Source: Escherichia phage FL18
Direction: 5' to 3' (one strand)
DNA: 64,000 bases
Sequence record: PP400780
Both the position numbers and the translations under genes were made by a program. Shown piece after piece: positions 2,683 to 36,154 of the stretch; positions within the stretch are counted from its first letter, which is position 1; every line of letters begins with the position of its first letter. The notes beneath the pieces were generated by a model. That model ran no database searches. It saw only the letters and a program-made list of their open reading frames with translations, and had not been told where the DNA came from.

Positions 2683-3684
2683 ATGAGTAAATTGGAGAAT
2701 AAAATGTTCAACGTTCAAATCAAAAAAGGTATCTATCGTAATAACGAAATCTCTGGTTCTTATGTTGCCACAAAGACCTGGTTCCCGGCAAAGCTTAATC
2801 CTGAATGTTCCCACTTAGGTGATGGTAAAATTTTCGTTATGATTGATGGTTCTGAACGTGGAGTATGGGTCTTCAAATCAGACATCATAATGGAAGGAGT
2901 TGAGACATCGCCAGTTGCAGTTGTTGAAAGCACTGAAGATATGAAAACTCGTATCAACAAACGCTTTAAAGTAATGAACATGATGACGAATGGCATTATC
3001 GATGGCAAAATTCGTTCACTCATTATTTCAGGTGCAGCTGGTATTGGTAAGACGTATTCTCTGGATAAAGCACTTAATAATGCTAATGATAACGGTTTCA
3101 TCAAATACAAAAGCATTAATGGTAAAATCTCTGGTATTGGCCTTTACGAACAACTTTGGCCCAACCGTGATGCAGACAGCGTTCTCTTAATCGACGACGT
3201 TGACGTATTCTCAGATATGGACATCTTGAACCTTCTTAAAGCAGCATTAGATACCGGAGATAAACGCAAAGTTTGTTGGAGCACTGCGTCATCTTATCTC
3301 GACGATAAGGGTATTGATAAAGAATTTGAGTTTGAAGGTACTATCGTTTTCATTACAAACGTTGATATCGATAAAGAGTTAGAACGCGGTTCTAAACTTG
3401 CTCCACACCTTCAAGCTTTAGTATCTCGTTCAGTGTATCTCGACCTTGGAGTACACTCTAATGAAGAGATTATGGTTCGAGTTGAAGATGTAATATTATC
3501 TACTGACATGATGCAGAAACGTGGTCTGACGGATGCAGAAACGTATAAAGCATTGTCCTGGATGAAGGCTAACGTATCTCGTCTTCGCAATGTATCATTA
3601 CGTACGGCTCTTTATGTAGCAGATTTTATTTCAACTGATAAAGATGGTTGGGAAGAAATCTCGGAAGTTACTTTACTGAAATAA
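2683..3684 (+). CDS. P-loop NTPase (AAA-like ATPase)
   Basis: Walker A GAAGIGKT and Walker B-like LLIDDVD in translation. Confidence 0.55.
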   Translation: MSKLENKMFNVQIKKGIYRNNEISGSYVATKTWFPAKLNPECSHLGDGKIFVMIDGSERGVWVFKSDIIMEGVETSPVAVVESTEDMKTRINKRFKVMNMMTNGIIDGKIRSLIISGAAGIGKTYSLDKALNNANDNGFIKYKSINGKISGIGLYEQLWPNRDADSVLLIDDVDVFSDMDILNLLKAALDTGDKRKVCWSTASSYLDDKGIDKEFEFEGTIVFITNVDIDKELERGSKLAPHLQALVSRSVYLDLGVHSNEEIMVRVEDVILSTDMMQKRGLTDAETYKALSWMKANVSRLRNVSLRTALYVADFISTDKDGWEEISEVTLLK

Positions 3685-4758: not shown

Positions 4759-5754
4759 ATGAGCATTACATCTTATGCGGTAAAACATGAAATTAACGGT
4801 TTATGTGCTTCACAGATTAAAGTGTGGTTTAAAGACCATAATGATCGCAGAGCACTTAATTATGAACAAATTGCTATCCAAGTTCATCAATTACTGGTTA
4901 GTAAATTTGATTTTCATATGCCGTCTGAAATCTATACTAATCTACCGCGAGCGCTTATTAAAGCGTGTAAAGGTTATGGAAAATCAATGGCTGATGGAAT
5001 CTTCAGCGCGCTGAATAAACTTAACGTTCTGTCGATGATTAACTCTAACAATATCCTGCGTAATTTAGGACGTACTGATTTGTTCGGTCGTGAACAGGGT
5101 AAAATGCCTTTGAAATGGATTGTTGCTCATCTTAACGAGAACCAAACACGTTTTCTGGCTGTATCAGCACGTTTACAAATGGGCCTAGATCGTCAGATGA
5201 ACTTTAAAACTCATCCACGTTATTCAGGTTCAACAGACTTTTATAAATGTGAGCTTCAAAAGGTCGGTGGCAAAACTGTCTTAGTAGTTCGTGTAACTTT
5301 TGAAGGACGACGTCAAGGATATTTTAACCTAATTGGCTCTGGTCTTAAACATTGCGGATTTATCGACGAAGTTGATATCAAGCGAGACGGCATTGGATAT
5401 CGTATTGGATATGTTTGTACTCTTAAAGAAGAGATTTTAGGCCCGATCCCAGGACTAAAAGACGTTAGATATAAAGACGAGCTCGTTGAAGAAATAAAAG
5501 AAGTTGAATATGATATCAACCAAGAAGATGCTCTTAAAGACCTTATTGATGAACTAAACCAAGACGTTATTCCGGTTCAGAAATTTGAATCAAAACATGC
5601 TGAGCAAATCAAATACTTTGAAGCTTTGATTAACGAACTTAATGTAACTATTCAACAGACTGACGATGAAATCTCACGATTAGCAGGCTTAAACGGTAAA
5701 AATAAAACAGAACGAGCTAATCTTATTCAAGTAGTAAAACTTCTTAAGGAATGA
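4759..5754 (+). CDS. hypothetical protein with C-terminal coiled-coil-like region
   Basis: 331-aa ORF preceded by promoter-like TTTACCC...TATAAT at 4698-4723. Confidence 0.5.
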   Translation: MSITSYAVKHEINGLCASQIKVWFKDHNDRRALNYEQIAIQVHQLLVSKFDFHMPSEIYTNLPRALIKACKGYGKSMADGIFSALNKLNVLSMINSNNILRNLGRTDLFGREQGKMPLKWIVAHLNENQTRFLAVSARLQMGLDRQMNFKTHPRYSGSTDFYKCELQKVGGKTVLVVRVTFEGRRQGYFNLIGSGLKHCGFIDEVDIKRDGIGYRIGYVCTLKEEILGPIPGLKDVRYKDELVEEIKEVEYDINQEDALKDLIDELNQDVIPVQKFESKHAEQIKYFEALINELNVTIQQTDDEISRLAGLNGKNKTERANLIQVVKLLKE

Positions 5755-5811
5755 TGTACAACCAAGGATGGTTGGAGTATAATGAATCTATCTTAACGAG
5801 AGGAAAATATT

Positions 5812-6765
5812 ATGACACGTTCACATTACATTGATTATTTTGCAGGTCTTATCGCTAACGTTCATGCCCAACGTGCTTCTGGTTCATTAGGATTTGATGT
5901 TCCACACCGAGTTGTAGTAAGTGGTATTCTTCGCGATTTTGGTACATACACAGGCCAAGAAAATCATATCTGTAAAGATACTCAGAATGCGTATTCTCAT
6001 TCATTAGGGACACTGCTTCAATGGTTCAAACGTTCTCGTTTATTATCTTCGACTGTAGCTCGCGATAACATTAAAAACTTTATGAAGCCGAGCTTTATTA
6101 AATCTGCGACATCTAAAACCGATTTGGTTGAATTCACTATTGTTAATGATGTTAAAAAGACTCATTTGGCTGATTGGTTATCTACCATTCCTGAAACTAA
6201 ATTTGCTGATAAATTTGCTTGTGAATTCAATAACCAAGTGAATATGCTTTTTAAACATTCTCGTAAATTATTTACAGGTGGCGATGGTCGTACAAATAAA
6301 GTTCATGCTAAAGATTGGGTTACTGCAGTATTCAAACCAACCGGTAATGGTAACGCATCATTGTCAATTGATATCCAGGTTCCTTATTACTACTCACGTA
6401 ATCTCGGTACCATGAAAGCCGAAGAAATTAATAAGCGCAACAAAACCGTTCGTTCGCTGTCTTATAAACTTTGTACGATGTTACAGATTATGGATGTTGT
6501 TGAAATGTTCGACGAAACCGAAGATAACGGTTCAATGTTATTCAGTTCTAATATTCGAATTAAGCTGAAGAACCCTAATACATATAAACCTAAGCCTATT
6601 AAAGAACCTAAAGTAGAAAAAGTTGATAACTTAAGAGAAGAACGCGAATATCTCAAATCTCGTCTGAAAGAAGTCGAAGCCCAGATTGCAGAACAGACTA
6701 AATCGTTAAAAGCTCTGAATGCGAAAGCGGATGGTTTACGAAATGCCATTGAGGTATTGAAATGA
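5812..6765 (+). CDS. hypothetical protein with C-terminal coiled-coil-like region
   Basis: 317-aa ORF with GAGG SD; preceded by GTACAACCAAGGATGGTTGGAGTATAAT promoter cassette. Confidence 0.5.
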   Translation: MTRSHYIDYFAGLIANVHAQRASGSLGFDVPHRVVVSGILRDFGTYTGQENHICKDTQNAYSHSLGTLLQWFKRSRLLSSTVARDNIKNFMKPSFIKSATSKTDLVEFTIVNDVKKTHLADWLSTIPETKFADKFACEFNNQVNMLFKHSRKLFTGGDGRTNKVHAKDWVTAVFKPTGNGNASLSIDIQVPYYYSRNLGTMKAEEINKRNKTVRSLSYKLCTMLQIMDVVEMFDETEDNGSMLFSSNIRIKLKNPNTYKPKPIKEPKVEKVDNLREEREYLKSRLKEVEAQIAEQTKSLKALNAKADGLRNAIEVLK

Positions 6766-7076
6766 AAAAGCGTCTATTAGAAGACATTGCAGCTTCAAGT
6801 AATTCCAGTTTAATTAAAATTATTATGGCCGGTGAAGAAGACGATCTGGAAATGCGCGGAAAGATTCATGGTTGTGATGATTATAGCAGCCCTATTAATT
6901 GGAATTCTGTAATGGTCATGGTTGAACGCCGCGAACGTGCTTCTAAAAACGTTCCTAATTGCCCTGAATGTGGAACTGAACAGGTGCAATTGGTCCATTG
7001 GCAGACTAATAATCTTCGTTATAAATGTCGCCATTGTAAACACCGATTTGACCGAGAAGAAAATGACCAAGCGTAA
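6762..7076 (+). CDS. zinc-ribbon protein
   Basis: CPECG ... CRHC paired Cys motifs near C-terminus. Confidence 0.5.
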
Positions 7077-7221
7077 AGAATATATGGAGACTGCTGAAAA
7101 GGCAGTCCGTGAATTAGCAATAGCTTATTATAATGAACATGGTAAATTTCCTGATAGATACAGCGTGCTTAAATCAGCTTTAACTCGTTCATATAAAAAA
7201 TATGCTATCAGAAGTAAGTGA
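7063..7221 (+). CDS. hypothetical small protein (52 aa)
   Basis: in-frame ATG inside ORF-track entry 6922..7221; the upstream part of that entry overlaps the previous gene. Confidence 0.3.
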
Positions 7222-7307
7222 TATTATATACAAACATAAAGAACAAACGGGCCAAAGTCTTGATTACGACGAGACTTTTAAACAAGTACTAGGAATTAAG
7301 GAATAAT

Positions 7308-7571
7308 ATGTTTAAAGTATATGGTTATGATAGCAACATCCATAAATGTGTGTATTGCGATAATGCAAAACGTCTTTTGACCGTGAAGAAACAGCCATTT
7401 GAATTTATCAATATTATGCCGGAAAAAGGTGTTTTTGATGATGAGAAAATTGCTGAGCTTCTGACTAAACTAGGTCGTGATACTCAAATCGGCTTGACAA
7501 TGCCTCAGGTATTTGCTCCTGATGGAAGTCATATTGGTGGATTTGACCAACTGCGAGAATATTTTAAATGA
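7308..7571 (+). CDS. nrdC: glutaredoxin/thioredoxin (T4 NrdC-like)
   Basis: 87 aa, CVYC active-site motif, near-identical to recalled T4 NrdC sequence. Confidence 0.85.
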   Translation: MFKVYGYDSNIHKCVYCDNAKRLLTVKKQPFEFINIMPEKGVFDDEKIAELLTKLGRDTQIGLTMPQVFAPDGSHIGGFDQLREYFK

Positions 7572-7903
7572 ACGATATTGATTTTGCCAAAGCATATAAA
7601 TTTGTAGCAACTCTTCTCGGCCCTGACGCTCCTACTAAGCTTGAAGTTTTAAATTCGATTCCGACTTCATTGGTTCGAGATGCTGAAATATGGACATGGG
7701 ACGACCCAGCTGTTTGTGAAGACCTGTACATTCTGATGAATGACATGATGGTTAAAAAGCCTGAAACAATGGTTACTATTACTGTTGAAGAATATAATCG
7801 CCTACAAGCCATCGAAGAGCTTCTGTGGAATGTTGAATCTGATTTGCCATCTGGGCTAGAATCCTGGGTTGATTATGAAGAGCTCAATAAGCTCCGCGGT
7901 TAA
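7568..7903 (+). CDS. hypothetical protein (111 aa)
   Basis: ORF translationally coupled to nrdC (ATGA overlap). Confidence 0.45.
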   Translation: MNDIDFAKAYKFVATLLGPDAPTKLEVLNSIPTSLVRDAEIWTWDDPAVCEDLYILMNDMMVKKPETMVTITVEEYNRLQAIEELLWNVESDLPSGLESWVDYEELNKLRG

Positions 7904-8004
7904 ACCGTGGTATTCGGCTCGACTGTCTCCCATCGAGCCAGACGTCGAAACAGTTTACAACGACGAAGAAACATGTTATGATGAGCCTTCAATAAATGAA
8001 TTAA

Positions 8005-8202
8005 TTGATATGGAAATGGGAAGAGATTATTATGCAAGTTAAATTATTGTACCGTTTATTAAAAAATGGCAAGCATGATTGGTATTTGCTTATTAAAACC
8101 GATCAGAATTTTTTCTCCGGACACCCATTTACAGTTCGTCCTACTAAACGTCAGCTTCGCAAAGCTAAACGTTCTCATCGTAACTTTTATAACGTTTACT
8201 AA
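8005..8202 (+). CDS. hypothetical small basic protein
   Basis: C-terminal motif VRPTKRQLRKAKRSH resembles C-terminus of ORF 35942..36154 (VRPTKRQIRQEKRKF). Confidence 0.35.
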   Translation: MIWKWEEIIMQVKLLYRLLKNGKHDWYLLIKTDQNFFSGHPFTVRPTKRQLRKAKRSHRNFYNVY

Positions 8203-8204
8203 AT

Positions 8205-8241
8205 TATAAATACCCTTATCTATTTAAGGTAAGGGTTTATC
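8205..8241 (+). promoter_or_regulatory. late promoter TATAAATA plus RBS-sequestering hairpin upstream of gene 49
   Basis: TATAAATA at 8205-8212; inverted repeat ACCCTTA (8212-8218) / TAAGGGT (8230-8236) includes SD AAGGG; ATG at 8242. Confidence 0.5.
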
Positions 8242-8715
8242 ATGTTATTATCAGGCGCAAAATATAAAGAAGAAAAACAAAAATTTTATGATGCACAGAA
8301 TGGTAAGTGTCCTATTTGCCACCGTGAATTAGACCCTGATGTTCAAGGTAACCATCTTGACCACGACCACGAATTAAACGGGCCAAAAGCCGGTAGAGTT
8401 CGTGGATTACTCTGTAATCTGTGCAACGCAGCAGAAGGTCAAATGAAGCATAAGTTCAACCGTTCCGGTCTTAAAGGACGTGGTGTCGACTACCTCGAAT
8501 GGCTTGAAGCTCTTCTTGTTTATTTGAAACAAGATTATTCTGATAATAATATCCATCCTAATTTTGTTCCAGACAAAACTAAAGAGTTCTCAAGACTAGG
8601 TAAAGAGGAAATGATGGCTGAGATGCTTCAAAGAGGATTTGAATATAATGAATCTGACACCAAAACACAGTTAATAACTTCATTTAAGAAGCAGCTTAGA
8701 AAGAGTTTAAAATGA
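8242..8715 (+). CDS. 49: endonuclease VII (Holliday junction resolvase)
   Basis: 157 aa, near-identical to recalled T4 gp49 (MLL.GK.YKEEKQKFYDAQNGKC ... HLDHDHELNGPKAG). Confidence 0.9.
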   Translation: MLLSGAKYKEEKQKFYDAQNGKCPICHRELDPDVQGNHLDHDHELNGPKAGRVRGLLCNLCNAAEGQMKHKFNRSGLKGRGVDYLEWLEALLVYLKQDYSDNNIHPNFVPDKTKEFSRLGKEEMMAEMLQRGFEYNESDTKTQLITSFKKQLRKSLK

Positions 8716-9380
8716 ATGTAGTATATAAACTATCATTTATTAGTAGAATTAATGCTAAAACCCCGCCATATTATTATATTGGAAGTAAAACCAATTGCAC
8801 TTTTGACGGAACGAATATTATTGATAAAAATGGTAAATTTTATTATTCGTCTTCGTCATCTTCCGAATTTCAAAAAGCTTTGTTGAAAGAAACACCGAAA
8901 GTTGAAATATTATATTTTCAATTAGTCGGAGATGAACAAATAACTAGCATTGAAGCTGAATTTCAAAAGAATATAGAAAAAGATATATGGAATAAAGAGT
9001 ATTTTAATTTAGCATATGCTAATGGTCAATTTACAACGTACGGTGTTTCTCCTTCTAAAGAAACTAGAGAAAAGCAATCAATAACCATGATTAAAAGAAA
9101 TCGTAATAAAGGTAAAAATCATGGATTTTATGGAAAGCATCATACTAATTTAGCCAGAAAGAAAATATCAGAAGCTTCTAAAAAATACTGGAAAGAAAAT
9201 CCACATCATGGATTTTCGCACACAAAGGAAGCTAAAATTAAAATTGGAATTTCATCTTCTATCAGGCATAAAGGAAGTGGAAATCCGATGTACGGCGTAA
9301 AACCTTGGAAAACTCCTAGCGTTGTTCCATGGAATTTAGGTAAAATGAAAGAAATGGTAAAACGAGTAAAACATGCATAG
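8712..9380 (+). CDS. Seg-like homing endonuclease (GIY-YIG-like N-terminus, NUMOD-like repeats)
   Basis: VYKLSF ... YYYIGSK motif; repeated K/R-rich helix motifs; GNPMYG; paralogous to ORF 18918..19451. Confidence 0.55.
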   Translation: MNVVYKLSFISRINAKTPPYYYIGSKTNCTFDGTNIIDKNGKFYYSSSSSSEFQKALLKETPKVEILYFQLVGDEQITSIEAEFQKNIEKDIWNKEYFNLAYANGQFTTYGVSPSKETREKQSITMIKRNRNKGKNHGFYGKHHTNLARKKISEASKKYWKENPHHGFSHTKEAKIKIGISSSIRHKGSGNPMYGVKPWKTPSVVPWNLGKMKEMVKRVKHA

Positions 9381-10203
9381 GTATTATATAATTTATAAAA
9401 TAACAAATATAATTAATTCAAAGGAATATATCGGTGCGCATAGCACCGATAACATAAATGATGGTTATATGGGATCAGGAACATTGATTCGTGCCGCTTT
9501 ATTAAAATATGGTAGAAAAAATTTTAATAAAGAAATTTTACATGTTTTTGATAATGAAAAACAAATGTATGATAAAGAAGCTGAACTCGTAACCGAAGAG
9601 TATTGTCTAAAAGAAAATACATATAATATTAAACCTGGTGGAAAAGGTGGAACTGCCTATGAACAGACACTTGAACATCGCCGCAAAAATAGTTTAGCAA
9701 ATAAAGGTAAAAAGAGAACAGAAGAAACTAAAATAGCTATTTCACGTGCTTTAAAGAAATATAAACGTACGCCAGAGCATCAAGCAAATTTAAATAAAGC
9801 CGTAAGCATAGCTATGAAGCGAAAAGATGTTAGAAGTAAATTAGCTGGAGAGCGGTCTGAGAAAGATAAATTACCTATATCAAACGGTGTTAAAAAATAT
9901 TACAATTCTTTGAGTGAAGAAGAACGCGAACTTCATCGCAAGCGAATTATTGAAGGTAAAAAGAATTCTCCCATGTCATTGGAATCTAGACAAAAGCTTT
10001 CAAAAGCTTTAAAAGGACTTCAAGTTGGTTCAAAAAATCCAATGTATGGAAAAATTTCTCCAACTAGCAAAACCGTTTCAGTTGACGGTATTAAATATGA
10101 TTCAATTAAAAAGTGCTCAAATGCCATAAAAGTTTCTAGACATCTTATACTAAAACGCTGTAATTCTACTGATGAAGCTTGGAAAAATTGGATATTATTA
10201 TGA
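9373..10203 (+). CDS. GIY-YIG homing endonuclease (Seg-like)
   Basis: YYIIYKITNIINSKEYIGAHST (GIY ... YIG), downstream N/E residues, NUMOD3-like repeats (TEETKIAISRALK; SLESRQKLSKALKG; NPMYGK). Confidence 0.75.
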   Translation: MHRYYIIYKITNIINSKEYIGAHSTDNINDGYMGSGTLIRAALLKYGRKNFNKEILHVFDNEKQMYDKEAELVTEEYCLKENTYNIKPGGKGGTAYEQTLEHRRKNSLANKGKKRTEETKIAISRALKKYKRTPEHQANLNKAVSIAMKRKDVRSKLAGERSEKDKLPISNGVKKYYNSLSEEERELHRKRIIEGKKNSPMSLESRQKLSKALKGLQVGSKNPMYGKISPTSKTVSVDGIKYDSIKKCSNAIKVSRHLILKRCNSTDEAWKNWILL

Positions 10204-10670
10204 ATTATGACAGAATATACCCGTGTTGCTTTGTGAATGGCCCTGGATGCAGGGTCGTTCTTTTCGTTACAGGTTGTTTGCATAAATGCGAAGGGTGTTA
10301 TAATAAATCAACATGGAATGCTAGAAATGGTGTTCCATTCACTGGTGAAACACTAGAACAATTAATTGAATGTTTGAATAATGATTATATAGAAGGATTG
10401 ACTATAACCGGAGGTGACCCTCTTTATCCTGATAACAGAGACGTGATTCACTCTGTGGTTCAAACTATTAAAAATCTTTATCCCAATAAAAGCATTTGGT
10501 TGTGGACAGGATATAAGTTTGAAGATATTAAACAACTAGAAATGCTTAAATATGTTGATGTTATTATTGATGGGAAGTATGAGAAAAATCTTCCGACTAA
10601 AAAGCTGTGGCGAGGATCAGATAATCAGCGACTTTGGTCAAATACCGATGTGGTGTGGAAACATGATTAA
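10200..10670 (+). CDS. nrdG: anaerobic ribonucleotide reductase activating protein (radical SAM)
   Basis: 156 aa from ATG at 10200 (MNYDRIYPCCFVNGPGCRVVLFVTGCLHKCEGCYN); matches recalled T4 NrdG. Confidence 0.85.
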   Translation: MNYDRIYPCCFVNGPGCRVVLFVTGCLHKCEGCYNKSTWNARNGVPFTGETLEQLIECLNNDYIEGLTITGGDPLYPDNRDVIHSVVQTIKNLYPNKSIWLWTGYKFEDIKQLEMLKYVDVIIDGKYEKNLPTKKLWRGSDNQRLWSNTDVVWKHD

Positions 10671-10785
10671 ATTGAATTATATTATGGATACTATAAATGA
10701 TATGATTTTTCATTTTGGTCCAGAATTTTATTCGCAGTATAGTTTAGTGCTTATCAATGCTTGGTTAATCAATTAAGGGTAAAAT

Positions 10786-11001
10786 ATGTATAAATTTCGT
10801 AAAGGTTTAGCTGATTTTCTTACAACTGTAACATTCTTTCTGTTTATGGCAGTTGGAGCTATTTTCCTTATTCCTTTTATTGCTATATTTTTCGTGATTA
10901 GTTTGATTTCTCCAGAAAAAGGACTATCTTCTAGTGAGTTCAATGAGCGTCTGGATAAAATTACTAACAAGCTGAATGCGGTTCTTGATAAAAAGGATTA
11001 A
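10786..11001 (+). CDS. small membrane protein (71 aa)
   Basis: hydrophobic core LTTVTFFLFMAVGAIFLIPFIAIFFVISLI. Confidence 0.45.
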   Translation: MYKFRKGLADFLTTVTFFLFMAVGAIFLIPFIAIFFVISLISPEKGLSSSEFNERLDKITNKLNAVLDKKD

Positions 11002-11003
11002 TT

Positions 11004-11315
11004 ATGATTAGTTTTGAGCGGTATGTAGTAGAGAGTTGGAATGGTTTTGATATGTTCGGTAATGACTATTATTTCTATGAATGTAGTCTGAACCCAAGCT
11101 TCTGGGCTGGACGTGAACAAGACCTCGAAGAAATCAACGCTCGTGCCGATTTGTTAGGTGAACTGCCTACGGTTTATTTTACCTTTGATGAATCCGGCTT
11201 CGTTATCCAGGTTTATTTTCCTGAAGAAAACTCTGGTGAGGATTCTGTTAATCCTCCTTATTGGGCTTACCAAGGAATTATTTCTCGTGGAACAAAACTC
11301 GAACTTAAAGAATAA
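11004..11315 (+). CDS. hypothetical protein (103 aa)
   Basis: ORF-track entry, early-operon orientation. Confidence 0.45.
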   Translation: MISFERYVVESWNGFDMFGNDYYFYECSLNPSFWAGREQDLEEINARADLLGELPTVYFTFDESGFVIQVYFPEENSGEDSVNPPYWAYQGIISRGTKLELKE

Positions 11316-11316
11316 G

Positions 11317-11610
11317 ATTGAAGTCTATGGAATTCCAGATGAAGTAGGTCGTTGTCCTGGATGTCAATCAGTTACAAAACTTCTAAAGGAGCTCAATGCT
11401 CCTTTTACTTTCTATAAAGTTCTTACAAATAATGGTAAGATTGAGTATGATCGTCCACTGATTGTATCTCTTGCTAAACGCGCTGGATTCACATCTCTTA
11501 ACATTCGTTATCCAGTCATTTTCATTAATGATTCTAGACAAAAGAATATTAAACACTTCAAAGAAACTCTCATTTCACTTGGATATGATAGAGATATCAT
11601 AGAAGATTAA
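11317..11610 (+). CDS. glutaredoxin-like protein (NrdH-like, CPGC motif); start codon uncertain
   Basis: IEVYGIPDEVGRCPGCQS redox motif; no in-frame ATG/GTG after upstream gene stop, possible ATT start at 11317; syntenic with T4 nrdH. Confidence 0.45.
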   Translation: MEVYGIPDEVGRCPGCQSVTKLLKELNAPFTFYKVLTNNGKIEYDRPLIVSLAKRAGFTSLNIRYPVIFINDSRQKNIKHFKETLISLGYDRDIIED

Positions 11611-11613
11611 GAC

Positions 11614-11634
11614 GGGCCCTCTGGGCCTTTCTTT
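11614..11634 (+). terminator. stem-loop GGGCCC-TCT-GGGCC followed by T-rich tract
   Basis: inverted repeat immediately after stop at 11610. Confidence 0.5.
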
Positions 11635-11704
11635 CTCACATTCTGTATATTACCATTCTAAGCTATCGTTCCTTTCTTATCATTCCCTAAAATATTTTTC
11701 ACAA

Positions 11705-11742
11705 AGTTGTTTACAACGAGCTCAAACCGTGGTATTATTAAC
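11705..11742 (+). promoter_or_regulatory. T4-type early promoter (GTTTACAA ... TATTATTA)
   Basis: aaagttgtttacaacgagctcaaaccgtggtattatta. Confidence 0.5.
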
Positions 11743-11768
11743 ATATGAATTGCCTTTGAGGATTTGAT

Positions 11769-11951
11769 ATGGTTGTGGTTGATAAAGAAATTAAAAAGGG
11801 ACAGTATTATCTTATTAATGGTAATGCTGTTCGCGTTACCTACGTAAATGGTTATGATGTTTATTATCTTATACTTAAGTTACATAAACACATGATTTGT
11901 GACCGTGCTGTATTTAGTTCAGTTGCTAAGGAAATTAAACTCCATGGGTAA
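11769..11951 (+). CDS. hypothetical protein (60 aa)
   Basis: ORF-track entry following promoter. Confidence 0.4.
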   Translation: MVVVDKEIKKGQYYLINGNAVRVTYVNGYDVYYLILKLHKHMICDRAVFSSVAKEIKLHG

Positions 11952-12237
11952 AACGTATCGTCGTAAAGACTTAAAAGTGCGTGATTATGACTATTTCGGA
12001 AAGCGTAAAGCTCCTGACGGTGTAAGTCATAAAGATATGGTTGAAAACATTTTTCGCTCAGATAAATGGCGTAGAATGAAAGGTATTGATTCAGAAGTTA
12101 AAGATGAGTTAAATCGTCAATTACGCGGTGAAGTAAGAAAGTTGAAAAAATCAGTTTACATTGACGATGATTTTGATTATAATACTTCTCAACGAGTTGC
12201 TAAACGTAAATCAAACGAGTGTTATCGTTACAGCTGA
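11944..12237 (+). CDS. hypothetical basic protein (97 aa)
   Basis: in-frame ATG (MGKTYRRKDLK...) within ORF-track entry 11899..12237. Confidence 0.45.
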   Translation: MGKTYRRKDLKVRDYDYFGKRKAPDGVSHKDMVENIFRSDKWRRMKGIDSEVKDELNRQLRGEVRKLKKSVYIDDDFDYNTSQRVAKRKSNECYRYS

Positions 12238-12376
12238 GGAAAATATGAATATCAAACGCATGCTTTTTAAGCAAGGGCTATATACTTTAAATGTTACTCC
12301 AAAAGGCGATACAACTAAGTGGTCAGTAAATGACTGGATTAAATTTATTGATGAAAACGGTAATTGGGAAATTTAA

Positions 12377-12577
12377 ATGAATCCTGAATCTAAATTATCG
12401 CAGCGAATTGCTGAAGAACGCGCCAAATTTTTCCAGAACATGAAACACAATGGTATTGAGGATGAAGTTTTTCTAAATTGGTTCTGGAATAATAAGTATG
12501 CAGCATGTGAAGGAGCTTTGTCATTGTCAGTCGCAATGATGTACGAAGGCTGGAAGGGTGCCAAAAAGTTTAGCTAA
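12377..12577 (+). CDS. hypothetical protein (66 aa)
   Basis: ORF-track entry; followed by terminator. Confidence 0.45.
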   Translation: MNPESKLSQRIAEERAKFFQNMKHNGIEDEVFLNWFWNNKYAACEGALSLSVAMMYEGWKGAKKFS

Positions 12578-12595
12578 GGGCTTCGGCCCTTTTTG
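12576..12595 (+). terminator. rho-independent terminator (AAGGGC-TTCG-GCCCTT-TTTT)
   Basis: perfect 6-bp GC stem, TTCG loop, T-tract. Confidence 0.6.
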
Positions 12596-12630
12596 GATAA
12601 TAAAATTTTTAACGTAATTGAGGATAATGT

Positions 12631-12957
12631 ATGACTATTCAAATTAAAAACGCCATCAATTCTTACGCATATGATAAAGTAGTTTCTTTGCTAGAAAAAG
12701 GCGATATTGTAACTCCTCAAATTTTGGATAAATGGGAAAAAGAGCTTCATCAAATGATGAAACAGAATGATCAGAAGATTGGACGCAACACTGTACGTGA
12801 ATTGTTGGTTCAATATATCTTGTCAGAATTTGATGTTAAAGCTTTTGGTGTAGAATCTAAAGCTTATCAAAAGCATGAAATTTCCGATAAAACTATTCGT
12901 CGCATGAAAAATCAACGCAAGAAAAAAATTGCAGACCTGAAAATTACTAAGGTATAA
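12631..12957 (+). CDS. hypothetical protein (108 aa)
   Basis: ORF with GAGGA SD upstream. Confidence 0.45.
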   Translation: MTIQIKNAINSYAYDKVVSLLEKGDIVTPQILDKWEKELHQMMKQNDQKIGRNTVRELLVQYILSEFDVKAFGVESKAYQKHEISDKTIRRMKNQRKKKIADLKITKV

Positions 12958-12959
12958 TT

Positions 12960-13175
12960 ATGAACGAAGCTCTTATTAACGATTTGCGTCTTGCTGGATA
13001 TGAAGTAAATACAAATGGCATTGGTTTAACTCAAATTGAAGGAAACGGATTCATCCTTGAGTATGAATTTAGCCAATGGTGGTTATATGCCAATTACGGC
13101 GAATTGATTGAATATGTTGACCAATTTGATTCACTAGATGCAGCTCTTGAAGCGGCTAAGTTGATGAATGTATGA
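12960..13175 (+). CDS. hypothetical protein (71 aa)
   Basis: tightly packed ORF. Confidence 0.45.
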   Translation: MNEALINDLRLAGYEVNTNGIGLTQIEGNGFILEYEFSQWWLYANYGELIEYVDQFDSLDAALEAAKLMNV

Positions 13176-13441
13176 AATTTATTAATATTTCTATTACTAT
13201 TGAAAATTATGGCATTTTCTATGTTGACCAATACATGAAAATTTCATTTTTCCCAAATAAGACTGGTGTTGGATATTGGGAAAGTCATGTTTCTGAATTA
13301 AATGAAAGTGAATATGTTAGCACACATGAAAAGTTTTTAGACTTTTTATATCATGCAGATTTAACTAGTCATTATATAGATATTCATGAATTTAAAAAGA
13401 TGATGGAGAAAGTGTTCCAAGCATACTGTTTACTTAGATAA
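13172..13441 (+). CDS. hypothetical protein (89 aa)
   Basis: ATGA-overlapping ORF. Confidence 0.45.
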   Translation: MKFINISITIENYGIFYVDQYMKISFFPNKTGVGYWESHVSELNESEYVSTHEKFLDFLYHADLTSHYIDIHEFKKMMEKVFQAYCLLR

Positions 13442-13454
13442 CTGATATCCTCTA

Positions 13455-13492
13455 TGCTTTAAGATAGATCTTCAAATATTATGATATAATAG
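13455..13492 (+). promoter_or_regulatory. promoter-like region upstream of gene 55 (TATAAT at 13485-13490 flanked by ATAGATCT repeats)
   Basis: aagatagatcttcaaatattatgatataatagatctatg. Confidence 0.4.
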
Positions 13493-13519
13493 ATCTATGA
13501 ATTGAGCTAAGAGGTGAAA

Positions 13520-14077
13520 ATGTCAGAAACTAAGCCTAAATATAATTACGTAAACAATAAAGAGCTTTTACAAGCTATTATTGATTGGAAAACAGAATTA
13601 GCAAATAATAAAGACCCAAATAAAGTAGTTCGTCAGAATGATACTATCGGATTAGCCATTATGCTTATTGCAGAAGGCTTATCTAAACGTTTCAACTTTT
13701 CAGGATACACCCAGTCTTGGAAACAAGAGATGATTGCAGATGGGATTGAAGCCTCTATTAAGGGACTTCATAATTTCGACGAAACTAAGTACAATAACCC
13801 GCATGCATACATAACTCGAGCTTGTTTTAATGCTTTTGTCCAACGTATCAAAAAAGAACGTAAGGAAGTTGCAAAGAAATATAGTTACTTCGTTCATAAT
13901 GTCTACGACAGTCATGACGATGATATGGTAGCGTTGGTAGATGAAACGTTTATTCAAGACATCTACGATAAAATGACGCATTATGAAGAATCCGCTTATA
14001 AAGCTCCTGGGGCTGAAAAGAAGGAAGTTGTTAGCGATTCGCCTAGTTTGGATTTTTTATATGAGGACGACAATTGA
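13520..14077 (+). CDS. 55: late-transcription sigma factor gp55
   Basis: [33 protein letters not shown] ... near-identical to recalled T4 gp55; ATG at 13520 with GAGG SD (ORF-track start 13514 is an upstream GTG). Confidence 0.9.
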
Positions 14078-26125: not shown

Positions 26126-27811
26126 ATGAAAAAAGCTGTTATTCTTGGTGCTGGACTGGCAACTCGTTTGTATCCAATAACGCATCATATTCCTAAGGTG
26201 CTTGTTAACTATAAACAAGATACTATTCTGAGCAATTTGTATACAATTTATTCTGACCTTGGCGCAGATGAAATTATTGTAGTAGTTCATTCAAAATTTG
26301 CTGAAACTGTTCGAGCTTATTGTGAACAAGAAGGGTTCAATGTGACTATTCGTACAGTTGATGAAGCGTATGGTTCTGCTTATGCTCTTGCTAAATTACA
26401 CAAAGATTTAGACGGCCATAATGTAATTGTTAACTGGTGTGATATTATTCCTGATTTTGGTTCATGGTCTTGGAATGTTAACGCAATCTATGTTAAGGGT
26501 GACGAATGTCGATATAATTTCGACGGTGAAAATATCACTAACGTAGGTTCAACAGGTGGTAATGTTGTAGGAATTTATCAGTTCAAAGACTGGGAATTCT
26601 ATATGGGTTCTACTGATGAGGAAATTCATGAATACTGCAAAGGACGTGATTTCGTAGAATTCCTTTACGGCAGCGCATTCAATAAATCAGAGCTTATGAA
26701 TCTAATTGATTTAGGTGATATGCCTAAACTTGAAAAAGCTCATGAAGTTCGTGAACTTAATCGTAGTTTTAATGCAGTTGAAATTGGTGAAGAAACTGTA
26801 ACTAAATTCGCATTAACCGAACAGGGTCGAGCTCTTCAGAAAGATGAGATTTCGTGGTATCTTAAAGTGAAATCAGATTCAGTTCCTCAGTTAGTTTCTG
26901 TTAATGAAAATAACTTTGAAATGGAACGCATTAAAGGTAAGCCTGCATTTGAATATATTAAATCCAAATCAAGTCTTGCTCGTCCACAAATTGTTGATGC
27001 AATTTTAGATGCACTGAAATTCAGCACAGACACTTATTTTGTAAGTCCTGAAACTGTTCGTCGTGATTTCACTAAAGAATTCTATACGAAAGTTATTGAT
27101 CGTTGTGAAAGCATTCAACCATTGATTGATTCATTTGGTAAAATCACACATGTGAACTACACTAAGATTGGACGTCTGAAGCCAATGCTGAAACAAGCTT
27201 TAGAACACCTCATTCGTTATCATAACCGTTCTCAGGGACAGTACTCTGTTATTCACGGTGACCCGAACTTCAGTAATACTATGATTACTGATAATGGCGA
27301 AGTCAAGTTTATCGACCCTCGTGGATATTTTGGTGAAACCAAGATTTACGGGCCAAAATTGTACGATGAAGCTAAAGTGCTTTATGCTGTTTCAGGTTAT
27401 GATGAATTCAATGCTAATCCGACCTGGGGGCAGTTTACTATTGATGAAACAACTTGTAATGTGACTATTAACATCAATCCATTAGTTTACAAATATAGAA
27501 AGATGAGTTCGTTTAACGAGTATCATCATTTGGCAGTGGCAATTATCTGGATTGCATTAGGCGGTTATTTCAAGAATAATCCACTTAAAGCGGTAGCCGC
27601 ATATTATAAAGGTATGGAACTTCTGACTAAGCAATTACGTAACATGGGCCGTGTACTTCAGGACGGCTCTATTAGTTATGACGTAGCAGAACCTGTAACG
27701 GCTACTCTGATTACAAAAAATCCTGGTAAATGGGTACTAACTGATAAAGAAACTGGTGTTTCCTATCGTCCAATCGGTGGCGATATCACTCATCAATGGG
27801 AACGAATCTAA
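26126..27811 (+). CDS. bifunctional sugar-1-phosphate nucleotidyltransferase / kinase-like fusion protein
   Basis: N-terminus MKKAVILGAGLATRLYPITHHIPKVLV (sugar nucleotidyltransferase G-rich loop); C-terminal region has protein-kinase-like HGDPNFSNTMI (catalytic loop) and FIDPRGYFG (DFG-like) as in APH/choline-kinase-type small-molecule kinases. Confidence 0.65.
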   Translation: MKKAVILGAGLATRLYPITHHIPKVLVNYKQDTILSNLYTIYSDLGADEIIVVVHSKFAETVRAYCEQEGFNVTIRTVDEAYGSAYALAKLHKDLDGHNVIVNWCDIIPDFGSWSWNVNAIYVKGDECRYNFDGENITNVGSTGGNVVGIYQFKDWEFYMGSTDEEIHEYCKGRDFVEFLYGSAFNKSELMNLIDLGDMPKLEKAHEVRELNRSFNAVEIGEETVTKFALTEQGRALQKDEISWYLKVKSDSVPQLVSVNENNFEMERIKGKPAFEYIKSKSSLARPQIVDAILDALKFSTDTYFVSPETVRRDFTKEFYTKVIDRCESIQPLIDSFGKITHVNYTKIGRLKPMLKQALEHLIRYHNRSQGQYSVIHGDPNFSNTMITDNGEVKFIDPRGYFGETKIYGPKLYDEAKVLYAVSGYDEFNANPTWGQFTIDETTCNVTININPLVYKYRKMSSFNEYHHLAVAIIWIALGGYFKNNPLKAVAAYYKGMELLTKQLRNMGRVLQDGSISYDVAEPVTATLITKNPGKWVLTDKETGVSYRPIGGDITHQWERI

Positions 27812-28197
27812 TGCACCGTGTAGAAAACATGCTTAATCTTTGTTTTGATGTCGATGATTGTATAACAGAGTGGAATAACAATCGTGATTACGTGAACTTC
27901 AAACCTGACGTCGAAATGGTGTCTGCCATTAATGCCCTGTATGATGCAGGGCATACCATAACGCTTTACACTGCTCGCGGTATGAAGTCAGTAGGTCCTG
28001 GACGTATAGCAATTGACATTCTCCCAAGTCTGATTCAGAACTTGGAAAACATTGGTTTGAAGTACCATAATTTGCTAACACATAAACCAGTATATGATTG
28101 GATTATCGACGACAAAGCTATGCGTCCTGACGAATTCAAAGCTCTTATGAATAAAGGCGAATTCGAAACATTTAAATCGTATAAACCGAATCTATAA
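27811..28197 (+). CDS. HAD-superfamily phosphatase-like protein (start uncertain: 27796, 27811 or 27829)
   Basis: N-terminal LCFDVDDCIT (motif I-like DxD), TITLYTARG (motif II-like), WIIDDK (motif IV-like). Confidence 0.5.
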   Translation: MHRVENMLNLCFDVDDCITEWNNNRDYVNFKPDVEMVSAINALYDAGHTITLYTARGMKSVGPGRIAIDILPSLIQNLENIGLKYHNLLTHKPVYDWIIDDKAMRPDEFKALMNKGEFETFKSYKPNL

Positions 28198-29692: not shown

Positions 29693-30409
29693 ATGGGGAA
29701 ACATAACACAATGAAATATATCAAAGCCGCAGATTTTCAAACCGCATTTAAAGCAGTCAATCGTGAAATTTTAGAAAACCCGGAATTCGTAACTGATTCT
29801 CGTATTGGACGTTGTAATGAAATTGGGTCTATGACAGTAGTTGTTGACACTCCATCATCATTCAAAATGACTGACCCACGTATTAACCGCATCTCTTATG
29901 AATATGCCGAAGACTTCTGGAAGTTTATGATTTCTGGTGGTACCAACGCAGAAGAAGCGTTTAAGGCATATCCTAATGTCGCTAAATTTATTTCTAAACC
30001 AAAATCAGATGTTTTGCCGGCGAACTTCAATACTTTCTATGGTCCTCGCATTGCGGCCCAATTACCAGCTCTTCTAAAAGAACTTAAAGAGAAGCCTAAC
30101 TCTCGAAGAGTTGTGTTCCAAATTCTAGAAAGTTCTGATCAGGCTTTGCTTGATTCGGATGAAACGCTTGAATATCCATGTACTGACTCAGTGACTTATT
30201 ATATTCGTGATGGTAAGCTTTATACCCACTGTCATATGCGTTCTCAGAACTGTGCTGTTGTTATGCAGTTGGATTTTTATCTCCAAGGAAAATTACTTCA
30301 TTATATCGCTAACGAATGCGGTGTAGAAGTTGGTGATTATACTCATACCATGGTAAGTGCCCATGTGTTTGAACGTGATTTTGATTATGTTAAAGGATTC
30401 CTTGACTAA
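29693..30409 (+). CDS. 42: deoxynucleotide hydroxymethylase, thymidylate-synthase family (T4 gp42 dCMP hydroxymethylase-like)
   Basis: YPCTDSVTYYIRDGKLYTHCHMRSQNCAVVMQLDFY matches the TS/dCH catalytic core (PC nucleophile, MRS motif); synteny downstream of 43. Confidence 0.75.
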   Translation: MGKHNTMKYIKAADFQTAFKAVNREILENPEFVTDSRIGRCNEIGSMTVVVDTPSSFKMTDPRINRISYEYAEDFWKFMISGGTNAEEAFKAYPNVAKFISKPKSDVLPANFNTFYGPRIAAQLPALLKELKEKPNSRRVVFQILESSDQALLDSDETLEYPCTDSVTYYIRDGKLYTHCHMRSQNCAVVMQLDFYLQGKLLHYIANECGVEVGDYTHTMVSAHVFERDFDYVKGFLD

Positions 30410-31308
30410 TGGCTATTTTCCGCGTACCAATCTTGAGTATGCGGTCTTATGAAACTGGACAGTATGCTATCCTTAAGGATGGCAACTTCCAACTTCATTT
30501 GCACCGTGCTAATCCGGGTGATGTGATTACATATCCACGTAATGCATCTGATATTAAAGAATGCGAACGTCTTTTCCCAGAATTTAAGTTTGTTCCATTA
30601 TGGTATAAAGATAACGCTTATAACACTCGTAAATATTTCTGGTCTGAAAATGAATTTGTGGTTGATTCATTAATTGCTTATTATGATTGCGATTTTCTAA
30701 TCACAGATATAACTGGATATGACGGCGCTTTTGATGTAGAATTCAATTTCAATATCACTGCAGACCCTAATAAACCACGTTTTTATATTGACGAATTCTT
30801 AAAAACCGACATGTTGTCGGTTAATCGTTCAATCCAAACAACTGTGTTGAATGAACGTCAAAAAGAAGTGCTGGTTAACGCAGGTGCAGATGGTAATAAG
30901 ATTATCGTAACGCAGAAAGTTATACGTCCTTCCATCATGCAGCGTCTTGTAGGTGATTTGGCTCCTATTTATCTAGATGGTATTTTTCATCCATTTCGAA
31001 TTAGTGACCCGTGCTATCGTTTTGAACAAGTGGTTGAATGTGCAATTCAATTAGGTCAACCGCTTTATATAACCGATCCAAATAATAGCTTTGACAGAAA
31101 TAAGTATCCTGAAGAAGCGTTGATTCGAATTTTTAAACCAACTAAAACTGAGTACTATCAAATTCTTAAAGGACGTCCGAAGATTCAATATTTCGAAAAT
31201 CCTGAAGAGGTATTTCATCCAGGTCTTGGTGAGTTCATCTACTTTAATGCTTTAATTTCTTCACCGTATAATATACCTAAATATGAAGATGTCGTAATCG
31301 AGGAATAA
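30409..31308 (+). CDS. hypothetical protein occupying the T4 beta-glucosyltransferase locus (candidate DNA sugar transferase)
   Basis: 299 aa ORF between gene 42 and uvsX; no similarity to recalled T4 beta-GT. Confidence 0.45.
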   Translation: MAIFRVPILSMRSYETGQYAILKDGNFQLHLHRANPGDVITYPRNASDIKECERLFPEFKFVPLWYKDNAYNTRKYFWSENEFVVDSLIAYYDCDFLITDITGYDGAFDVEFNFNITADPNKPRFYIDEFLKTDMLSVNRSIQTTVLNERQKEVLVNAGADGNKIIVTQKVIRPSIMQRLVGDLAPIYLDGIFHPFRISDPCYRFEQVVECAIQLGQPLYITDPNNSFDRNKYPEEALIRIFKPTKTEYYQILKGRPKIQYFENPEEVFHPGLGEFIYFNALISSPYNIPKYEDVVIEE

Positions 31309-35752: not shown

Positions 35753-35940
35753 GCAAATTAACTAAAGTTACTTTTATCGGTTGGTTTAAAAGCGGTGAGA
35801 TGTTCACTAAAGATATCATGTTATCAGGTGATCGCGAAGAAATCGAGTGGGTTACGGTACAACTTGCTGAAGTGAACAATGCATTAGTTAAAGCATTTAT
35901 TAATGACGAGAAAGTTTTTGAAGCTGATTTCAGAGGATAA
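35749..35940 (+). CDS. hypothetical protein (63 aa)
   Basis: in-frame ATG within ORF-track entry 35728..35940. Confidence 0.4.
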   Translation: MSKLTKVTFIGWFKSGEMFTKDIMLSGDREEIEWVTVQLAEVNNALVKAFINDEKVFEADFRG

Positions 35941-35941
35941 T

Positions 35942-36154
35942 ATGTATTCAACTGTGTTTAAACCATCAGCATACGAATTTGCATCAACTACACAATGGAA
36001 AGCTCTTATTCTGGAAGGATGGGAACTAATGATGGACTGTGAAGCATCTGAAAAGTTTCCACACGGCAAAGTGGACTTCGTTAAATTTGCTGTGCGTCCG
36101 ACTAAACGACAGATTCGTCAAGAAAAACGCAAATTTCGAAAAAGTTTAAAATAG
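35942..36154 (+). CDS. hypothetical small basic protein (70 aa)
   Basis: in-frame ATG within ORF-track entry 35903..36154; C-terminal VRPTKRQIRQEKRKF motif shared with 8005..8202. Confidence 0.4.
   Translation: MYSTVFKPSAYEFASTTQWKALILEGWELMMDCEASEKFPHGKVDFVKFAVRPTKRQIRQEKRKFRKSLK

Follow-up and report, generated by a model that had tools for sequence, protein, structure and literature searches.

Probable loss of nrdD from Escherichia phage FL18 through a short-repeat deletion that joins a truncated homing endonuclease gene to the nrdD tail

In this work, we examine the region between gene 49 and nrdG in Escherichia phage FL18 (sequence record PP400780), where nrdD, the gene for the catalytic glycyl-radical subunit of class III ribonucleotide reductase, would be expected. 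The analysis covers a window of 64 kb, meaning the whole stretch of DNA analysed, which represents ~38% of the ~168-kb genome. A first-pass annotation of this window had placed gene 49, two open reading frames (ORFs; ORF1 and ORF2 below) and nrdG in succession, and its coordinates for all four are borne out by the ORF map and by profile searches (Table 1). The FL18 locus has the T-even gene order minus nrdD. The product of gene 49 matches Pfam Endonuclease_7 (70.5 bits) and the T4 endonuclease VII dimerisation domain (109.4 bits), and the genes across gene 49, ORF1, ORF2 and nrdG overlap their neighbours by 4-8 nt. At the gene 49/ORF1 boundary, the TGA of gene 49 overlaps the ATG of ORF1 within an ATGA; the ATG of ORF2 (segH) at 9373 overlaps the TAG of nrdD (9378-9380) by 8 nt, exactly as in intact phages; and a second ATGA marks the 4-nt overlap of segH with the ATG of nrdG. 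Across the two endonuclease ORFs the sequence dips to 27-30% GC, compared with 33-43% in the flanks.

Table 1. Features of the gene 49-nrdG region of phage FL18 (positions in the 64-kb window)
Feature	Position	Strand	Details
Gene 49 (endonuclease VII), intact	8242-8715	+	157 aa; PF02945, PF09124
ORF1, HEG1::NrdD fusion	8712-9380	+	222 aa
Probable deletion junction, one retained 9-bp repeat copy AACTCCTAG	9311-9319	+	breakpoint alignments
nrdD remnant, last 20 codons and stop, segH-linked variant (SVVPWNLGKMKEMVKRVKHA, then stop)	9320-9380	+	
ORF2, segH, intact	9373-10203	+	276 aa
nrdG, radical S-adenosylmethionine (SAM) activase of class III ribonucleotide reductase	10200-10670	+	156 aa; TIGR02491
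Tequatrovirus-like tract, 4.4 kb	9311-13726	.	250-bp identity scan against JM17 and SHFML-26
Right-hand crossover within gene 55	13726-13744	+	informative-site comparison

The first-pass annotation had found nothing resembling nrdD in the window, and this is confirmed by a tblastn search of the whole 64 kb with the 605-aa NrdD of a relative, in which the sole significant match was a stretch of 22 aa at 9312-9377, corresponding to the C-terminal tail and 100% identical to the NrdD C-terminus of phage Pu-Krd-SF6. Only residues 584-605 of NrdD are still encoded in the window, while the glycyl-radical residue G580 (in RRTCGYLG) and the Cys-rich Zn site are deleted, and what is left is not a class III NrdD. 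The suggestion that an intact nrdD might have been relocated beyond the window draws on the fraction of the genome that is visible here, but we consider it very unlikely: the last 20 codons and the stop of nrdD are still in place ahead of segH, Mosigvirus JM17 and the window are collinear apart from small indels, and phages carry NrdD essentially as a single copy at a single locus (2,928 places across 2,914 records, with one place in JM17).

Both ORFs had been read in the first pass as free-standing homing endonuclease genes (HEGs), a description that holds for ORF2, an intact segH, and fails for ORF1. The latter consists of residues 1-202 (of 273) of an endonuclease referred to here as HEG1, identical in this part to HEG1 of JM17, followed in the same frame by NrdD residues 586-605 and closed by the native TAG of nrdD. 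ORF1 matches NUMOD3 (30.3 bits; cutoff 20.4) and PHROG 7504, 'homing endonuclease' (E=1.7e-28), and the N-terminal domain of HEG1 shares 40% identity over 128 aa with T4-type SegG (E=5e-27). This part of ORF1 has the GIY-YIG fold. An alignment of 19 HEG1 family sequences shows full or almost full conservation of Y5, Y22-I-G24, E81 and F98-N99; no clear counterpart of the canonical Arg follows YIG (Q or K occupies its place), and R12 is conserved instead. Pfam GIY-YIG gave no match for HEG1. This silence is not evidence against GIY-YIG membership, because T4-type SegG itself (RB10 segG) has no Pfam match even at E<=10. As SegG illustrates, the Seg subfamily is under-detected by profile libraries.

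The conserved C-terminal module of HEG1, GWNPxLDxEFQK, is missing from the window, with 20 NrdD residues standing in place of residues 203-273, and ORF1 is consequently not a complete endonuclease that includes a C-terminal target-recognition region. Since the C-terminal region of I-TevI-type GIY-YIG enzymes confers target recognition, the truncated HEG1, by analogy, has probably lost site-specific binding and is probably not a working homing endonuclease. A suitable label for ORF1 is therefore truncated endonuclease/nrdD-remnant fusion, rather than homing endonuclease. At >=90% identity, HEG1 occurs in ~49 phage records, and it adjoins gene 49 or nrdD in every listed record with annotated neighbours. 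An exact-sequence look-up of the fusion protein gave no match. One protein of the same length as ORF1 (P0002, 222 aa) was considered as a second instance of the fusion and rejected, being a different, N-terminally short homologue.

ORF2 differs from RB3 SegH (GenBank AY262138) at a single residue (275/276 aa identical), and its DNA is 98.6-99.6% identical to segH of T6, RB3, RB6 and RB10, the value for RB3, RB6 and RB10 being 99.6%. It lies between the nrdD stop (9378-9380) and the nrdG ATG (10200), together with the linked variant of the nrdD tail. Judged by this near-identity and by its position, ORF2 is a SegH orthologue, for which site-specific double-strand cleavage close to its own locus is predicted. 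Profile searches returned NUMOD3 (33.8 bits) and PHROG 314, 'homing endonuclease' (E=1.8e-60); the match to TIGR01453, 'group I intron endonuclease', over residues 7-188 reached 50.3 bits (E=3e-13) against a cutoff of 56.05, and scores for PF01541 (9.6 bits; cutoff 22.6) and SegE_GIY-YIG (18.6 bits; cutoff 25) also fell below their cutoffs. By eye, the motifs IYKI…EYIGAH, an R in LIRAALLKYG, an E in KEAELV and an N in YNIKPGG can be recognised. The one substitution S168P (window 9874-9876) is unseen in RB3, Pu-Krd-SF6 and moha, and an exact-sequence look-up of the window's SegH allele gave no match. SegH of phages RB3, T6 and LZ2 (GenBank AY262137-9) was reportedly described by Sandegren, Nord and Sjöberg in 2005, and SegH is reported to cut its own genome. 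The GenBank entry AY262138 for RB3 SegH carries no annotated cleavage-site feature.

Comparison with relatives indicates how this arrangement arose. Mosigvirus JM17 has the order 49–HEG1 (273 aa)–nrdD (605 aa)–nrdG, Pu-Krd-SF6 and Tequatrovirus OES_C-3 have 49–HEG1–nrdD–HEG2 (segH)–nrdG, Mosigvirus moha and Tequatrovirus SHFML-26 have 49–nrdD–HEG2 (segH)–nrdG, and AugustSocin has neither HEG1 nor segH. All four presence/absence states of the two endonuclease genes are thus found among close relatives, and the site is polymorphic for both. Furthermore, nrdD is intact in every examined relative that carries HEG1 or segH except CJY920, which is discussed below. The first-pass annotation had proposed that nrdD was displaced or deleted in association with endonuclease insertion. 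Displacement by insertion does not stand, as relatives with one or both genes (JM17, moha, Pu-Krd-SF6 and OES_C-3) keep nrdD; deletion does, with endpoints tied to both endonuclease genes. Because the endonuclease genes coexist with an intact nrdD in these relatives, a separate deletion, of 1,961 bp, must be invoked to remove it.

The breakpoint alignments locate this event precisely. In pairwise BLAST, the window from 7300 to 9319 aligns with JM17 at 99.2% identity and from 9311 to 11700 with Pu-Krd-SF6 at 96.2% identity, and the nine bases AACTCCTAG (9311-9319) belong to both alignments. In the intact arrangement, copies of AACTCCTAG lie at HEG1 codons 200-203 and at nrdD codons 583-586, the latter four codons past the glycyl-radical glycine; FL18 keeps a single copy, and the 1,961 bp between the two are lost. 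The two endpoints accordingly fall within HEG1 and 54 bp ahead of the segH start codon (ATG), respectively, and the deletion took the C-terminal 71 residues of HEG1 (203-273) together with NrdD residues 1-583. The exact 9-bp match is restricted to a JM17-type HEG1 paired with a segH-type nrdD tail. AACTCCTAG is not the longest repeat on offer, as repeats of 10-12 bp are also present in the region. The join is in frame because the reading frames of HEG1 and nrdD differ and 1,961 leaves a remainder of 2 on division by 3; since the fusion ORF stops at nrdD's own stop, the overlapping chain gene 49 > fusion > segH > nrdG is kept. On this evidence, the FL18 locus very probably derives by deletion from the order 49–HEG1–nrdD–segH–nrdG.

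Two other readings of the same ORFs were weighed. Two complete free-standing endonuclease genes could constitute an ancestral arrangement or a functional replacement of nrdD, as each ORF is uninterrupted, translationally coupled and rich in AT, in the manner of mobile endonuclease genes; this carries almost no credence and is refuted by the breakpoint alignments, given that ORF1 lacks 71 C-terminal residues found in ~49 orthologues and has 20 NrdD residues instead, and that nrdD is intact in all examined relatives with HEG1 or segH bar CJY920. The idea that HEG1 and segH recombined as paralogues was likewise rejected: their best BLASTP match (E=0.017) reflects weak NUMOD3-type similarity, and the right breakpoint falls in nrdD, not in segH.

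The junction is unique to FL18 among the collections searched. None of the 892 T-even records recovered by megablast with 7300-11700 is collinear with the window, and the best of them cover the query in three pieces with ~2.5 kb of additional DNA. No contiguous junction occurs in any of 50,697 phage records, and searches of viral, genome and metagenome contigs found neither the junction 45-mer nor the 30-mer. The component genes themselves are known, as SegH has been characterised and dozens of genomes carry an annotated HEG1; what is new, and rare, is the allele.

A comparable loss was recovered with a synthetic query that joined gene 49 to nrdG–nrdH and that can match as one piece only if no more than ~1.56 kb separates 49 from nrdG. 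A one-piece match was obtained in 1/876 T-even records, namely CJY920 (PQ349265.1, flagged UNVERIFIED), in which a ~2.8-kb deletion runs from nrdD codon 10 into nrdG codon 64 at the 8-bp microhomology GAAGGATT and fuses NrdD(1-9) in frame to NrdG(64-156). The loss of nrdD in CJY920 is independent of the FL18 deletion. That both deletions are in frame could reflect selection against polarity in overlapping ORFs; the chance expectation is 1/9, and two cases prove nothing.

The window is, in addition, a mosaic of two genera. It is 99-100% JM17-like over 5001-9319 and again from ~13750 onward, whereas at 9311-13726 identity to JM17 collapses and Tequatroviruses match best, with SHFML-26, wV7 and SG1 giving the best matches for 10204-13500 at 97-98%. 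This Tequatrovirus-like tract comprises the nrdD tail, segH, nrdG, the 55.x ORFs, nrdH and the 5' part of gene 55. The informative sites of gene 55 run as 67 consecutive SHFML-26-type sites followed by 73 consecutive JM17-type sites, and the crossover point can be placed between 13726 and 13729, in a stretch of <=17 bp shared by both parents, whose sequences agree at only ~80% in this region. Judged by these affinities, the backbone is a JM17-like Mosigvirus carrying a 4.4-kb segH-bearing donor tract, whose left edge is the deletion junction and whose right edge is a short-identity allelic crossover. No identical mosaic was found among database phages.

Such a mosaic with a unique junction is also what an assembly or sequencing artefact might produce, in the form of a chimeric Mosigvirus and Tequatrovirus contig with a false join that skips nrdD. 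An artefact is improbable, however, because the 9 bp shared at the left join are too short for an assembler mis-join, far under the usual k-mer and overlap lengths. Moreover, that join is precise, in frame and uses nrdD's own stop, the right join is a clean single switch between the two runs of informative sites, and a similar natural deletion exists in CJY920.

The position of the deletion with respect to segH bears on what may have triggered it. Two clearly different forms of the last 22 codons of nrdD (9311-9372) occur, and which of them a phage has goes with whether it carries segH: the tail GTPSVVPWNLGKMKEMVKRVKHA is common to 4/4 segH-bearing phages examined, across genera, and GNPNERGFNLGKNKEIMHRVKHQ to 2/2 phages without segH. 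The 9-bp repeat (AACTCCTAG) forms the very start of the variant tract, and directly upstream of it Pu-Krd-SF6 already has the haplotype of phages without segH, so that the linkage ends there. The segH-linked nrdD tail thus begins exactly where the deletion has its right end. Across phage records, the variant tail is found in 80 and segH in 72, and ~8 records may therefore have the variant tail and no recognisable segH. Homing always co-converts whatever DNA separates the cleavage site from the endonuclease gene, and for this reason the sharp left edge of linkage offers a reasonable estimate, derived from the sequence comparison, of where SegH would cut, namely four codons past the glycyl-radical glycine.

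A plausible account, which we hold tentatively, is that a SegH double-strand break started the deletion and was repaired through microhomology. In this scheme, SegH would cut both strands at the left edge of the segH cassette, the left end would be resected by ~2 kb until the matching 9-mer in HEG1 was exposed, and the right-hand 3' end, terminating in the 9-nt repeat, would anneal to that HEG1 9-mer. In a one-step version, the break would have occurred during segH homing from a Tequatrovirus donor into a JM17-like Mosigvirus; in a two-step version, SegH would later have cut its own genome. More specifically, a single aberrant inter-genus homing event could have given the recipient segH and 3.5 kb of donor DNA at the cost of nrdD and the HEG1 tail, with the right side repaired from the donor by allelic crossover at <=17 bp of identity in gene 55 and the left side, once ~2 kb had been resected, by a join primed on 9 nt of microhomology; this single-event history is, in our estimation, rather unlikely. 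A putative intermediate with JM17-type HEG1, nrdD and segH on the same imported tract was found in none of the database phages.

The principal rival is a spontaneous short-repeat deletion, by slippage or illegitimate recombination and without any endonuclease cut, that would have become fixed as nrdD is dispensable under aerobic growth. It leads to an identical structure and departs from the SegH account in the trigger alone; we give the two about equal weight. Deletions between short direct repeats are said to be classical in T4, as reportedly described by Singer and Westlye in 1988, and the short-repeat deletion of a dispensable gene is a classical kind of event. Auxiliary nucleotide-metabolism genes belong to a 'Quasicore' that is dispensable in some backgrounds (PMC2993671). 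What speaks against a spontaneous origin is the exact match of the right endpoint to the first 9 bp of the segH-linked tract: among the 81-83 possible deletions at repeats >=9 bp that affect nrdD and spare gene 49, one (1.2%) ends <=15 bp from the edge of this tract, a figure that is post hoc.

Several considerations also weigh against a SegH-initiated deletion or limit what can be built on it. The junction is known from one assembled sequence; the SegH cut at the cassette edge is deduced from linkage, and the endpoint figure was calculated after the fact. Approximately 165 repeated 9-mer pairs are present in the reconstructed 4.4-kb region, and a deletion at a short repeat can arise spontaneously without an endonuclease. 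In CJY920, nrdD was lost at an 8-bp repeat whose endpoints lie off the cassette edge, and segH itself was removed. Additionally, the one-step and two-step histories predict an identical present-day sequence, and we infer, rather than observe, both the loss of HEG1 function and the anaerobic phenotype considered below.

If SegH did initiate the event, the breakpoint at the edge of the segH cassette provides a testable case of homing breaks that resolve via microhomology and delete neighbouring genes, with a predicted SegH cut at or beside nrdD codons 583-586. Should the single-event history be true, the locus would offer natural evidence of collateral gene loss caused by homing endonucleases, which would then be able to disable one another.

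The first-pass description of nrdG as orphaned is accurate, in that nrdG is intact and its partner is gone from the locus. NrdG scores 197.6 bits against the TIGR02491 equivalog (cutoff 126.1) and 166.7 bits against Fer4_12, its cluster motif CLHKCEGC has the CxxxCxxC spacing of radical-SAM activases, and 154/156 aa are identical to NrdG of SHFML-26. The single substitution G151V (window 10650-10652) is unseen in four relatives; together with S168P in SegH, it is compatible with relaxed constraint after the loss of nrdD, although two such changes are too few to test. Because nrdG is intact, at 154 of 156 residues, and HEG1 residues 1-202 are identical to those of JM17, the sequence suggests that the deletion is recent and that nrdG is a recent relic.

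Without NrdD, we infer that FL18 can no longer make its own class III ribonucleotide reductase. The class I NrdAB of the phage would be encoded outside the window. The expected phenotype should be normal aerobic growth on class I NrdAB and a lower anaerobic burst. FL18 would accordingly be a gut-associated T-even phage whose anaerobic ribonucleotide reductase has been knocked out, in nature or in culture, usable as a ready-made strain for gauging the share of phage NrdD in oxygen-free growth, and it indicates that nrdG is able to persist as an orphan shortly after the loss of its partner. In a survey of phage reductases, nrdD without nrdG is common, and the reverse state is unmentioned there (PMC3653736).

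The surroundings of the locus follow the T-even order, with nrdC (7308-7571) and small ORFs upstream of gene 49, and nrdH (ending at 11610) and gene 55 (13514-14077) downstream of nrdG. In moha, Pu-Krd-SF6 and SHFML-26, pin (encoding a Lon-protease inhibitor) sits between nrdC and 49; tblastn gave no pin match in the window at E<=1e-3, the nrdC-49 interval being 7568-8241, and the JM17 annotation is also without pin. Among the small indels relative to JM17, the window at 27807-27833 lacks a 724-bp JM17 segment that encodes a 'putative GIY-YIG family homing endonuclease' (JM17 locus 30196-30957). Within the window, that endonuclease resembles SegH (39% identity) and nothing else, and its absence is another presence/absence polymorphism between two near-identical phages. 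A 297-bp JM17 segment with a small hypothetical ORF (JM17 locus 3169-3465) is missing at ~2303-2307, and at 35930-36134 the window has 203 bp extra.

Compared with known systems, FL18 shares with the T4-type operon 49–nrdD–(mobC)–nrdG a common order and common flanks (nrdC … 49 … nrdG, nrdH … 55), but, unlike the T4-type class III operon, it is without the catalytic glycyl-radical subunit NrdD. With the RB3 SegH locus it has in common the position of segH just upstream of nrdG, the 8-nt overlap with the nrdD stop and the variant nrdD tail, whereas nrdD in FL18 has shrunk to 20 codons; the backbone of FL18 is, moreover, that of a Mosigvirus rather than of a Tequatrovirus as in the known SegH hosts, although Mosigvirus moha also has segH. 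SegG (T4 gene 32.1), which is reported to have been characterised as a free-standing GIY-YIG homing endonuclease by Liu and colleagues in 2003, shares with HEG1 the signature VY-x-PPYYYIGSK, the E and the FN. The two differ in location (HEG1 at 49/nrdD, SegG at 59/32) and in their C-terminal regions, and while SegG is characterised, HEG1 is known from sequence and its copy in the window is without residues 203-273.

CJY920 and FL18 both lose nrdD at one locus through an in-frame microhomology deletion, yet CJY920 loses all of segH and nrdG codons 1-63 as well, on a Tequatrovirus backbone that has no HEG1. A related precedent for an endonuclease-linked event comes from T6, in which a SegB-dependent rearrangement at microhomology leaves a C-terminally truncated SegB (PMC13096335). 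Although the T6 case is a defence-selected amplification in which the need for SegB was proven experimentally, and that of FL18 is a deletion known from its sequence, the two have in common a free-standing GIY-YIG locus, the use of microhomology and a C-terminally truncated endonuclease ORF.

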